A stretch of 64,000 nucleotides of DNA from Clostridia bacterium (GTDB taxonomy: Bacteria; Bacillota; Clostridia; Oscillospirales; CAG-272). A program made the position numbers and the translations under genes. Shown here in pieces: positions 52,540 through 54,115 of the stretch. Numbering within the stretch: position 1 is the stretch's first letter; each line of letters starts with the position of its first letter. The notes beneath the pieces are model-generated. The model did no database searches and was not told the DNA's origin. It was given only the letters and a program-made list of their open reading frames with translations. The stretch is taken from assembly GCA_017537175.1 (NCBI GenBank), contig JAFYLH010000012.1, positions 65,375 to 129,374 of the forward strand. Direction: 5' to 3'.

Positions 52540-52975
52540 GCAGGATATCATTACAGTTACCCCCGAGCTTAAAAGGCTTATGGTAAATGCGGTTGCCAAG
52601 AGTCTGAAATACGAGGAATTTCCCGATAAATGCGAGGTCTCAATTACCCTTGTGGATAACGAAGAGATACACGCTTTAAACCTTGAGTACCGCGGTGTTG
52701 ACCGCCCCACCGATGTTCTGTCCTTTCCCATTTTTGACGAGGACGATATGGGCGGTAAAACAATACTGGGCGATATAGTTCTCTCCCTCGAAAGAGCCAC
52801 TGAGCAGGCAGCGCAGTACGGACACTCTTTTGAAAGAGAGGTCGCTTTTCTGACCGTTCACTCTATGCTTCACCTCTTAGGCTATGACCACGAGGAGGGA
52901 AAAGCCGCCGAGAGCGAAATGTTTTCCCGTCAGGAAGCAATTTTATTAAAAATGGGTCTTGCACGAAATGCTTAA
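52502..52975 (+). CDS. ybeY: rRNA maturation endoribonuclease YbeY
   Basis: Zinc motif HSMLHLLGYDH; TDVLSFP; overlaps the phoH end. Confidence 0.9.
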   Translation: MRKDGHDIFIKNEQDIITVTPELKRLMVNAVAKSLKYEEFPDKCEVSITLVDNEEIHALNLEYRGVDRPTDVLSFPIFDEDDMGGKTILGDIVLSLERATEQAAQYGHSFEREVAFLTVHSMLHLLGYDHEEGKAAESEMFSRQEAILLKMGLARNA

Positions 52976-53012
52976 TTATAGTATAATATATTGAATACAC
53001 TTTGTGTATTCA

Positions 53013-53181
53013 GCTAAATTCGCTATGCGAGCTAAATGTGCAGAGCACGCTAAATTACTTCGTAGCTAAATTGACCTTCGGTCAGCTGATATGCGAATTT
53101 AATTTAGCTGTTTCACAGAAACAATTTAGCTATCACGCAAAGCGGGATAATTTAGCTTTGCACGTAAGGGCAAAATTTAGC
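53013..53181. repeat. Array of eight octamers: four GCTAAAT(T/G) (53013, 53031, 53049, 53065) then four AATTTAGC (53101, 53123, 53149, 53174), with self-complementary spacers
   Basis: Read directly from the ybeY-era intergenic region; spacer hairpins include TGTTTC-ACA-GAAACA, TATC.CGC-AAA-GCG.GATA, TTTGC-N8-GCAAA and GACC-TTCG-GTC. Confidence 0.85.
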
Positions 53182-53221
53182 CCAACATAAGATTTTAAAG
53201 ATAATTGAGGACATATCGTTA

Positions 53222-54115
53222 ATGAAAAAAACAGGTTTTGTCGCAATAGTAGGTCGACCCAATGTAGGTAAATCGACTCTGCTTAATGCACTTTTAGGCG
53301 AAAAGATCGCTATCATATCAAAAAAGCCCCAGACCACCCGTAACCGTATTACAGGTATACTTACCAGAGGCGAAACACAGTTCGTGTTCCTTGATACCCC
53401 CGGTATGCATAACCCCAAGACCAAGCTGGGCGATTTTATGGTCAAGTCGGTTACCTCTGCTATAGGTGATGTGGATGCGGCAATACTTGTGGTGGAGGCA
53501 GGAAGTAAGCCCCACGCAATAGAGCTTGGACTTATCGAAAAGTTCAAGCGTATGGATATGCCCGCTCTTCTTGTTATCAATAAGACAGATAAGTCGGATG
53601 CAGGCAAGATAGCCGAAACTATAAACGAATATGCACCCCTCTATGAGTTTGCTTCTGTTGTTCCGATCTCGGCACTTAACAATGACGGTGTTGATATAGT
53701 ACTTAACGAAACCGAGAGCTTTATGGAGGAGGGCGTTTGGTTCTTCCCTGAGGATGCAATTACAGATCAGCCTGAGCGACAGATCGCGGCTGAGATCATC
53801 CGTGAAAAGATCCTTCGCACCCTTGATGACGAGATACCTCACGGTACTGCGGTTGTTATCGAGGCATTTGAAGAAAGCTCCAAGCTTATTAAGATCAGAG
53901 CAGAGATATTCTGTGAGAAGGCCTCCCACAAGGGAATAATCATCGGTAAGCACGGTGCATCTCTTAAGACTATAGGCTCCTATGCCCGTGAGGATATGGA
54001 AAAGTTCTTCGGCACCAAGGTGTTCCTTGATCTCTGGGTCAAGGTAAAGGAGAACTGGAGAGACTCCAACTTCAACATAAGTAACTTCGGCTTTAAGGAC
54101 GATATGGGAGAATAA
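53222..54115 (+). CDS. era: GTPase Era
   Basis: G1 GRPNVGKST, G3 DTPG, NKTD, C-terminal KH domain. Confidence 0.95.
   Translation: MKKTGFVAIVGRPNVGKSTLLNALLGEKIAIISKKPQTTRNRITGILTRGETQFVFLDTPGMHNPKTKLGDFMVKSVTSAIGDVDAAILVVEAGSKPHAIELGLIEKFKRMDMPALLVINKTDKSDAGKIAETINEYAPLYEFASVVPISALNNDGVDIVLNETESFMEEGVWFFPEDAITDQPERQIAAEIIREKILRTLDDEIPHGTAVVIEAFEESSKLIKIRAEIFCEKASHKGIIIGKHGASLKTIGSYAREDMEKFFGTKVFLDLWVKVKENWRDSNFNISNFGFKDDMGE

Follow-up and report, generated by a model that had tools for sequence, protein, structure and literature searches.

In Coxiella, the intervening sequence (IVS) of the 23S rRNA has a 28-bp terminal stem that is cut by RNase III, with two to three GACAGAT heptamers, variable in number between strains, ahead of the open reading frame (ORF) for S23p (PMC4990558). 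S23p is a toroidal homopentamer of unknown function (PMC4990558), and the PF05635 proteins to which it belongs (S23p, IVP) are still called functionally uncharacterised (PMC4990558; bioRxiv 10.1101/2024.02.27.582315). Heptamer arrays are also found between genes: the (GGGAATC)n repeats of Xanthomonas and the GGGGA(T/C)T repeats of Nostoc form hundreds of intergenic arrays, mostly of four units, which lie between co-oriented ORFs and are for the most part transcribed; in Xanthomonas, about 70 array pairs per genome are inverted (convergent) (PMC4692102). These repeats are contiguous and G-rich and have been read as G-quadruplex formers, with no link made to S23p/IVP (PMC4692102). Here we analyse an array of inverted heptamers at positions 53013–53181 of a 64,000-nucleotide (nt) stretch of DNA from a Clostridia bacterium (GenBank assembly GCA_017537175.1, contig JAFYLH010000012.1, positions 65,375 to 129,374 of the forward strand; the whole stretch is referred to as the window). 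The array lies between the genes ybeY and era. Sequence comparison identifies 52992–53221 as an inserted, ORF-less (solo) copy of a heptamer-ladder family of gut and rumen Clostridia. With a probability of roughly 0.6, we read it as a solo copy of a selfish, IVS-like structured module that is linked to IVP genes, folds as a ladder and possibly acts as a platform for IVP.

The array occupies a 246-bp spacer (52976–53221) that has on one side a gene for YbeY (PF02130, E 6e-47) and on the other one for an Era-type GTPase (MMR_HSR1 and KH_2), in the gene order yqfD-phoH-ybeY-[array]-era-recO. Look-ups with the exact sequences of the window's Era and YbeY proteins gave no entry. A first-pass annotation, made from the window alone, had described eight octamers: GCTAAATT at 53013, 53049 and 53065, GCTAAATG at 53031, and AATTTAGC at 53101, 53123, 53149 and 53174, with start-to-start spacings of 18, 18 and 16 nt on the left and 22, 26 and 25 nt on the right. 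On re-reading, these coordinates, the spacings and the length of the spacer were all correct. The accompanying claim that every spacer within the array is self-complementary held for all seven and extends to a further hairpin, H0 (52992–53012), 5' of the array; in each case the complementarity starts at the outermost bases. While the octamer positions stand, the unit had to be shortened. It is the heptamer GCTAAAT (starts at 53013, 53031, 53049 and 53065; ATTTAGC at 53102, 53124, 53150 and 53175), because the eighth base, T, and the preceding base, A, close the adjacent hairpin as a pair and change together: T-A is switched jointly to G-C or C-G in hairpin H2 of the window (G53038-C53048) and in loci L296 and L317. 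Below, the heptamers are called rungs (O1 to O8) and the spacers hairpins (H1 to H7). The features of the element, in order, are:

52959–52987, + strand: promoter-like TTGCAC-17 nt-TATAAT, overlapping the ybeY stop codon; host sequence outside the insertion.
52992–53012, + strand: H0, a 9-bp hairpin (TGAATACAC-TTT-GTGTATTCA), flush with rung 1; a 100% complementary inverted repeat, paired in the minimum free energy (MFE) fold.
53013–53019, + strand: rung O1, GCTAAAT, pairs with O8.
53020–53030, + strand: hairpin H1, TCGC-TAT-GCGA; all 4 pairs covary.
53031–53037, + strand: rung O2, GCTAAAT, pairs with O7.
53038–53048, + strand: hairpin H2, GTGC-AGA-GCAC; closing pair G-C where T-A is usual.
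53049–53055, + strand: rung O3, GCTAAAT, pairs with O6.
53056–53064, + strand: hairpin H3, TAC-TTC-GTA; identical in L312, the closest relative.
53065–53071, + strand: rung O4, GCTAAAT, pairs with O5.
53072–53084, + strand: hairpin H4, TGACC-TTC-GGTCA; a self-complementary spacer.
53085–53101, + strand: centre (apex), a degenerate fifth left heptamer, GCTGATA, then T-GCGA-ATTTA.
53102–53108, + strand: rung O5, ATTTAGC, pairs with O4.
53109–53123, + strand: hairpin H5, TGTTTC-ACA-GAAACA; all 6 pairs covary.
53124–53130, + strand: rung O6, ATTTAGC, pairs with O3.
53131–53149, + strand: hairpin H6, TATC-A-CGC-AAA-GCG-G-GATA, with an internal A.G mismatch.
53150–53156, + strand: rung O7, ATTTAGC, pairs with O2.
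53157–53174, + strand: hairpin H7, TTTGC-ACGTAAGG-GCAAA; a covarying helix.
53175–53181, + strand: rung O8, ATTTAGC; 3' end of the ladder, where the covariance-model match stops (53181).
53182–53221, + strand: 40-nt tail with the era ribosome-binding site GAGGA (53207–53211); arrived with the insertion.

H0 adjoins O1 in nearly all members of the family, and its position is occupied by the intrinsic terminator of the tRNA in tRNA-linked members. The T-GCGA-ATTTA of the centre is a copy of the 3' arm of H1 followed by the first 5 nt of an inverse rung, and the mismatch position of H6 holds tandem G.A/A.G in most members.

The 64-kb window has nine exact GCTAAATT/AATTTAGC octamers, seven of which fall in the array, and the count of nine was reached by none of 100 shuffles (mean 3.15, maximum 7). 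Likewise, eight of the ten GCTAAAT/ATTTAGC heptamers are packed into its 169 nt; with about 12 expected per window, the chance probability of this cluster is, by our own arithmetic, far below 1e-10. The worry that octamers might simply be frequent enough to yield eight copies by chance therefore falls away. A generic scan for at least three copies of any 7-mer followed by at least three of its reverse complement within 260 nt gave the ladder site as the sole match in the window. The Rfam scan suggested at first pass placed the array in no family: Rfam 15 gave zero matches at the gathering threshold in the 64-kb window, rRNA included, and at permissive thresholds the best sub-threshold match of the array had 16 bits (E 0.3). 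No tRNA gene was found in the 64 kb. A 62-aa ORF at 53002–53190 was rejected as coding; it has no Pfam match, and the family has indels within hairpins. A CRISPR array was rejected too: it would have direct repeats of 23 nt or more, separated by unique spacers of comparable length, and would lack an inverse block, while here the repeats measure 7 nt, the second block has the inverse orientation and the spacers form hairpins.

Far from being a singleton, as it had appeared, the array belongs to a family that is tied to PF05635 genes and tRNA terminators. A search for further arrays had been proposed, and a scan of metagenome contigs with two direct octamers followed by one inverse octamer matched at least 120 loci. 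At least 64 of them (66 with the window and L001, described below) have the full grammar together with the centre, which was absent from the query; with these two counted in, the matches listed comprise 56 distinct sequences. The features that the query did not contain and the members nevertheless share are the extra rungs, flush hairpins in all spacers, H0 and the near-invariant centre AGCTnnnnnGGCGAATTTA-ATTTAGC. The family grammar can be written as H0; (GCTAAAT+hairpin)x4; a centre with a degenerate fifth rung; (ATTTAGC+hairpin)x3; ATTTAGC. As a definition we use 3–5 rung copies followed by 3–4 reverse complements within ~200 nt, into which the window falls with 4+4 units. Among the 64 parsed loci that were listed, this class is the commonest (20), ahead of 4+2 (10), 2+2 (9), 4+3 (6), 4+1 (5) and others. 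The source assemblies are independent and come from goat, sheep, deer, buffalo and human gut.

A covariance model, R1, was built from 12 distinct 4+4 members, the window among them. It matches the window, which is a seed sequence, over the full length 1–181 with 152 bits (E 4e-40), and 18 non-seed members score 103–161 bits; no further match was obtained in the window and none in the empty-site relatives. Applied to eight other loci with ladders or related arrays, Rfam 15 left the arrays unmatched and called only tRNAs and one hammerhead. The latter is a type II hammerhead ribozyme at L305 10711–10775 (+ strand; 43.9 bits, gathering threshold 37), about 10 kb from the ladder of that contig.

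Between near-identical loci the differences are of whole units, which is what recombination between direct heptamers would produce, and left and right flanks assort independently, breaking exactly at O1 and O8. In the human-gut contig pairs L237/L292, L300/L316 and L311/L236, one ladder is found with differing flank combinations across assemblies. The joining of the same ladder to different flanks indicates genome rearrangement by recombination between ladder copies at no fewer than three loci of one lineage.

The same architecture recurs with other rung sequences, namely GTGAAAT/ATTTCAC (L344, L347), GTGAAG/CTTCAC (L345, L346), TGAATTG/CAATTCA (L067) and GTTATGA/TCATAAC (L276), and L315 has a degenerate GTGTTAT/ATATCAC ladder with a central U.U. 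At L276 900–1049 and L315 3510–3673, these other rung types share a contig with a GCTAAAT ladder 0.5–2 kb away, so several ladder types can coexist in one genome. In IMG/VR, the specific pattern found two true ladders, both tRNA-adjacent and of the human-gut lineage. A blastn search of the element against phage and plasmid collections gave chance fragments only, and what a loose viral scan for three direct heptamers brought up were tandem repeats and the operator palindromes of phages, without hairpin spacers, which we regard as unrelated. Among the viral sequences, the enterobacterial-type phage contigs L093, L105, L148, L164 and L195 carry clusters of an ATTTAGC-N5-GCTAAAT palindrome beside a terminator; these sites are operator-like, lack hairpin spacers and share the heptamer by chance. 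The viral contig L157 (7435–7623) has TTAGCAT x4 followed by ATGCTAA x5 with unstructured spacers, a plain array of the DNA-site type that contrasts with the ladders.

The pairing proposed at first pass, in which the octamers of the two blocks join in nested fashion, was examined by comparative folding. RNAalifold on 12 distinct members returned O1:O8, O2:O7, O3:O6 and O4:O5 together with the hairpins. Across 30 top-strand members, 96.6% of pair cells are standard, compared with 84.0% after shuffling and 25–48% when the partner is slid by 1–3 columns. Both sides have changed at 21 pairs (182 cells), compensatory change is seen at every pair of every hairpin helix, and the covariation score of 0.312 (0.085 shuffled) was reached by none of 500 shuffles. 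From one subfamily to another, 3 of the 7 rung positions differ, and they do so simultaneously in every rung of both arms. This between-subfamily covariation was read directly from the sequences; a cross-subfamily MAFFT alignment misaligned the GTGAAAT and GTGAAG ladders and was left out of the counts. The element of the window also has a fold z-score of −5.15 against shuffles.

Several asymmetries favour the + strand. R1 gives the + strand 152 bits and the − strand 64; the right-half hairpins contain 37 G.A cells, mostly as tandem G.A/A.G, as well as GNRA loops; and over all hairpins, + strand G.U pairs outnumber A.C (22 vs 8). At every IVP-linked locus examined, the ladder runs in the same direction as the tRNA upstream of it and the IVP gene downstream. 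Together with the covariation, this provides good support for a + strand that folds as a ladder, most likely as RNA co-transcribed with era. Since the hairpins are flush with the rungs, each step would be a four-helix junction without unpaired bases, and rung could stack on rung, so that the four 7-bp duplexes would make up a quasi-continuous helix of ~28 bp from which the hairpins project as side arms.

To place the window copy in its lineage, 80 related loci anchored on Era were compared. The ybeY-era array is present solely in the window and in L001, a metagenome-assembled genome (MAG) from goat caecum. In the empty alleles L002–L009, whose Era is 84–97% identical, the spacer measures ~50 bp and H0 is missing as well. 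The block TATAGTATAATATAT is kept in L001–L009 with or without the ladder, and the empty alleles run straight from it into an AGGAG site. At the filled site, 229 nt (H0, ladder and 40-nt tail) stand in place of 29 nt of AT-rich spacer, with the GAGGA of the tail in the role of the AGGAG site; no target-site duplication was seen in this comparison. The array is, on this evidence, a lineage-specific replacement and not a ybeY-era feature, because close relatives have a short spacer without it. The first-pass link to ybeY-era, or to the position of dgkA and cdd in B. subtilis, thus gives way to a recent insertion. The same annotation had looked to orthologous spacers for covariation: L001 does have the identical array, but L002–L009 lack it, and the covariation came instead from family members at other loci.

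Between the window and L001 there are 0 differences in the 190 nt of H0 and ladder, and a single one over 52977–53262, which is 1 in the 40 nt of the tail, while ybeY, era and recO differ by 11.7–16%. Since family members are free to differ in the sequence of their hairpins, the identity speaks for recent horizontal spread or recombination as the origin of the window copy and not for constraint on each base. The near-identical tract of 286 bp (52977–53262) takes in the first 41 nt of era and resembles a recombination patch.

The promoter-like TTGCAC-17-TATAAT is a likely promoter of era's own in this lineage, with a transcript start at ~52993–52996, at the foot of H0. The pair was skipped by a consensus promoter scanner and its −35 matches at 3 of 6 positions; the −10 block is conserved in L001–L009. 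A different ladder is found in L067, a roe-deer Clostridia MAG in which ybeY and era are adjacent and the array sits in the era-recO spacer (2560–2745). It consists of a terminator-like H0, TGAATTG x4 with hairpins and CAATTCA x2, and we take it to be a second, independent ladder insertion into the same operon.

Elsewhere in the family, ladders are followed by IVP genes. A PF05635/TIGR02436 gene of 114–120 codons lies 16–60 nt downstream of the ladder in L222, L232, L296 and L305. The ladder-linked IVP matches PF05635 at E 1e-27 and PDB entry 2RLD, which has 5 chains, at E 2e-28. A short tblastn match to the start of the IVP gene was found downstream of the ladder in L309, and the end of L308 reads, by eye, as a start codon followed by a similar N-terminus. 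In a reverse search from the protein, 3 of 3 distinct Clostridial loci (homologues 78–80% identical) had the order tRNA gene(s)-terminator-ladder-IVP, the tRNAs being confirmed by Rfam. In the viral collection, the order terminator-ladder-IVP was seen at four of five IVP loci, with other rung sequences and directly after a tRNA gene or a tRNA-like 3' end (by eye). The A/U-flanked tRNA terminators were identified by eye; a consensus terminator scanner did not call them. These associations suggest that the family is a non-coding partner of IVP (S23p, four-helix-bundle, Avd-like) genes.

Solo ladders occur in the spacers of housekeeping operons, between pgk and tpiA (L271), era and recO (L067), and ybeY and era (window). 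The window departs from the typical context of the family in having neither a tRNA nor a PF05635 gene in 64 kb, and is solo like L271. At L321 (~2480–2780), a block of ~52 nt, made up of the last 19 nt of a tRNA and its terminator, is present twice at a distance of ~300 nt, shortly upstream of the ladder; the att-like repetition suggests that a small segment was integrated or excised. IVP is not among the defence proteins of PADLOC. The protein matches NCBIfam NF033474 (Avd) weakly, at E 3e-4 and under the cut-off of that model, and a link to diversity-generating retroelements (DGRs) through Avd was dropped, with no reverse transcriptase near any ladder examined.

PF05635 genes of Bacteroidetes, relatives of 2RLD, also come with heptamers: (AATTGAC)x4–5 upstream and (GTCAATT)x4 downstream, in contiguous units, so that the ORF lies in the loop of a stem of ~28–35 bp. 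These insertions sit within operons for sugars and amino acids (araD/IVP/araA; aminotransferase/IVP/3-deoxy-D-arabino-heptulosonate 7-phosphate (DAHP) synthase). The arrays were located at 2434–2501 and 2851–2942 in L334–L336 and L340, and at 2491–2501 and 2878–2959 in L337–L339. In L348, an IVP gene has contiguous AATTGAAA units, five upstream (~590–700) and two to three in complement downstream (1045–1080), which indicates that the unit can be 8 nt.

In the mechanism that we propose, the module would be transcribed with its host operon, in the window probably from TTGCAC-17-TATAAT, so that H0 would form the 5' end of the era mRNA. The hairpins would form first, and the arrays would then zip in the nested order O4:O5, O3:O6, O2:O7 and O1:O8. 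The strict conservation of the rungs within a subfamily and their change in concert with the IVP lineage suggest that the stacked rungs may be a sequence-specific recognition platform. Its candidate reader is the homopentameric IVP itself, favoured because four full rungs and one degenerate rung would suit five subunits and because rung type tracks IVP lineage. The position of the ladder just before the IVP ribosome-binding site suggests autoregulation or the formation of a ribonucleoprotein (RNP), for example in mRNA packaging. Alternatively, a double-strand-specific processing enzyme could act on the ladder, as RNase III does on IVSs; a function as IVP-binding or processing platform is a proposal in either case. 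We take the Clostridial hairpins to be structurally neutral insertions at the rung boundaries of an ancestral heptamer stem. The window copy probably rides along as a selfish passenger and gives the era leader a very stable extra structure.

A number of observations weigh against this reading. The 64-kb window has no PF05635 gene, and unbalanced copies (4+2, 2+2, 4+1) are frequent. Rung pairs are invariant within the GCTAAAT subfamily, so the case for ladder pairing rests on concerted change between subfamilies, which would equally fit a palindromic protein-binding array. The MFE fold of the window (−69.4 kcal/mol) uses the shifted register O1:O7, O2:O6 and O3:O5, and here the nested prediction of the first-pass annotation, borne out by RNAalifold, hairpin covariation and concerted rung change, is not reproduced; the strict nested ladder evaluates to −52.9 kcal/mol. 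As all rungs are interchangeable, a single-sequence MFE is ambiguous in register, and comparative folding was relied on in its place. Left-half hairpin loops are mostly UNC/UNNC, the complement of GNA/GNRA, and the opposite strand, or DNA, may accordingly have a role of its own. Seven-bp rungs with junctions between them are a non-canonical substrate for RNase III, and it is from sequence that the ladder RNA and its direction are deduced. Finally, 53015–53023 (TAAATTCGC, the end of O1 and the 5' arm of H1) is complementary to 53093–53101 of the centre (GCGAATTTA). The centre design (H1 3'-arm copy, partial inverse rung, inverse rung) is kept across all ladder subfamilies, and in all of them the H1 5' arm and the centre covary: CGCC/GGCG, CAC/GTG, CGC/GCG, TGCC/GGCA, CGGC/GCCG, CCACC/GGTGG, AAATCC/GGATTT and CAAC/GTTG. 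This pairing is incompatible with H1 and with O1:O8 and is unexplained by a simple ladder; a conformational switch or a tertiary contact is likely.

The most serious competitor, which we nevertheless think improbable, is that the element is mobile through folded single-stranded DNA (ssDNA), in the manner of repetitive extragenic palindromes and bacterial interspersed mosaic elements (REP/BIME), IS200/IS605 or transposable elements of the miniature inverted-repeat type (MITEs), with hairpins and rungs recognised by a transposase or recombinase, the RNA fold a by-product and IVP a cargo or accessory. Insertion at different loci with independent flanks fits this, as do the exact flank recombination at O1/O8, the variation of unit number among strains and the identical element in two genomes that are 12–16% diverged. 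Terminator hairpins are a known target type of ssDNA-dependent elements, and ladders adjoin them. IS200/IS605 elements use pairing between a guide and the cleavage site, which the complementarity of the centre to the left end recalls, and the left-half loops are GNA/GNRA on the bottom strand. Yet near the ladders examined no recurrent transposase, integrase or RAYT-like gene was found (RAYT was not searched for specifically), and the window site is a 29-nt replacement without target-site duplication. Hairpins that differ in sequence and keep their structure indicate long-term structural selection instead of recent copy-paste, and the orientation relative to tRNA and IVP gene is constant.

Less probable still is the alternative that the first-pass annotation had named, a symmetric array on which a protein binds duplex DNA at the eight heptamers (an iteron or centromere in that annotation, and also an operator or transposase end site). 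Invariant heptamers in two inverted blocks would be its natural signature; both arms change in concert between subfamilies, and phage contigs do carry operator-like GCTAAAT/ATTTAGC palindromes. IVP relatives such as Avd, moreover, are reported to bind nucleic acids. The spacing speaks against such an array: at 16–26 nt in the window, and different in every member, it is irregular and shows no helical phasing. Nor does duplex binding give a reason for flush hairpin spacers that are kept by compensatory change, or for tandem G.A, GNRA and G.U on one strand and 152 vs 64 bits.

That the element is a dedicated cis-regulator of era or a ybeY-era processing site (riboswitch, thermometer, Era/YbeY autoregulation) is very improbable, and a conserved regulator of this kind is already refuted by the comparison of loci. 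The location is suggestive, in the likely 5' untranslated region of era downstream of a conserved −10 box, and both YbeY and Era bind RNA and take part in the maturation of ribosomes. The orthologous spacer, however, is without the array in all relatives but one (L002–L009 and 70 further Era loci). The same element is met with between pgk and tpiA, downstream of tRNA genes and ahead of IVP genes, a different species has a different ladder in era/recO (L067), and no Rfam family matches. A functionless by-product of slippage or repeat expansion, of assembly or of chance can practically be dismissed: unit numbers do change by recombination between direct heptamers and the sequences do derive from MAGs, but chance is excluded by the octamer and heptamer counts and the generic array scan, independent assemblies from five kinds of host (goat to human) carry the element, and slippage can neither make seven different hairpins nor keep their pairing through 182 double substitutions. 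An origin of the hairpins as P-nucleotides or transposon footprints was likewise rejected, their loops being non-palindromic and RNA-type.

Gut bacteria encode thousands of PF05635 proteins (S23p, IVP), for which pentameric structures have been solved and which are relatives of Avd, the DGR factor. In two phyla, IVP genes are accompanied by a constant non-coding partner made of two inverted arrays of 4–5 heptamers, whose Clostridial form has an unusually regular, RNA-like architecture, predicted to be a chain of perfect four-way junctions, and very strong covariation. An orphan protein family thereby becomes directly testable against the ladder RNA, and the unexplained intergenic heptamer arrays of other phyla may find an explanation. 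A natural junction-ladder fold also bears on RNA structural biology and on how gut metagenomes are annotated. For the window alone the message is smaller: the element appears to be a recently acquired passenger in the era leader and no ybeY-era regulator.

Among known systems, the ORF-carrying 23S rRNA IVSs of Leptospira, Coxiella and others come closest. They share with the ladders a PF05635 gene, a place in or beside stable-RNA units and two complementary arms, which form a stem of ~28 bp in the IVSs and could do so in the ladders, and both are sporadic, horizontally spread and regarded as selfish (PMC4990558). The ladder differs in lying outside an rRNA helix, in having both arms upstream of the ORF, or no ORF, and in arms that are split by private hairpins. 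Where IVSs sit at the tip of an rRNA helix (23S helix 9, 25 or 45), the window element lies between protein-coding genes; as counterpart of the long IVS stem it has 4 × 7 bp of complementary rungs interrupted by hairpins, which may stack into a single helix. Excision by RNase III has been demonstrated for IVSs and is, for the ladder, a conjecture by analogy.

The Bacteroidetes arrays resemble the ladders in their 4–5 + 4 inverted units, their IVP partner and their place in housekeeping-operon spacers, and differ from them in being head-to-tail without hairpins, with the ORF between the arms and other unit sequences (AATTGAC, AATTGAAA). The Xanthomonas and Nostoc arrays match the ladder in unit length, number, inverted pairing and location; contiguity sets them apart, the ladder having hairpin spacers.

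Small, intergenic, co-transcribed elements that fold strongly, are modular with internal units in varying number, occupy several loci and serve as recombination substrates are familiar from the BOX elements of pneumococcus (boxA-boxB(n)-boxC), the REP/BIME of enterobacteria, Correia elements and MITEs. Copies of those elements share sequence, whereas ladders conserve rungs and centre only, and their hairpins keep pairing alone. A MITE would show terminal inverted repeats and a target-site duplication at a clean insertion; here 229 nt replace 29 nt and the rungs are the sole terminal repeats. In the flanks of ~15 loci, no transposase-bearing autonomous relative was seen, although this was not a systematic search. 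Nor is there the conserved palindromic unit of REP/BIME, as hairpin sequences differ within and between copies (RAYT, as noted, was not a search target).

Repeated short motifs for an oligomeric protein are found in the trp leader with its 11-mer TRAP, in CsrB/RsmZ with CsrA and in type III toxI with ToxN. Like these RNAs, the ladder has a repeated invariant motif at close effective spacing beside the gene of a small oligomeric protein, a functional analogy only; unlike them, it holds the motif also as its complement, so that the sites can pair with one another. Avd of DGRs is a homologous four-helix-bundle pentamer that works with a structured RNA and a reverse transcriptase; the flanks of the ladders examined contained no reverse transcriptase and no template or variable repeats. 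The literature searched on the rung sequences, the Bacteroides arrays and IVP with repeats yielded no description of the element, as did Rfam 15, and neither contradicts the first-pass statement that no element of this design has been described.

Precedents exist for its components: the stems of IVSs, heptamers in tandem arrays, and modular repeats between genes, of which BOX is an example. A wider unification, which we offer tentatively and with the odds against it, is that ladders, Bacteroidetes stems, IVS heptamers and perhaps the Xanthomonas and cyanobacterial arrays are one class, in which a stack of 4–5 identical 7-bp duplexes is read sequence-specifically by pentameric IVP/S23p. If so, they would constitute a new kind of selfish RNP module in highly transcribed operons and give a first function to a protein family that has been without one since 1993. 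By this analogy, the stacked ladder would be the same object as the uninterrupted stem of Bacteroidetes, and would resemble the 28-bp terminal stem of the IVS.

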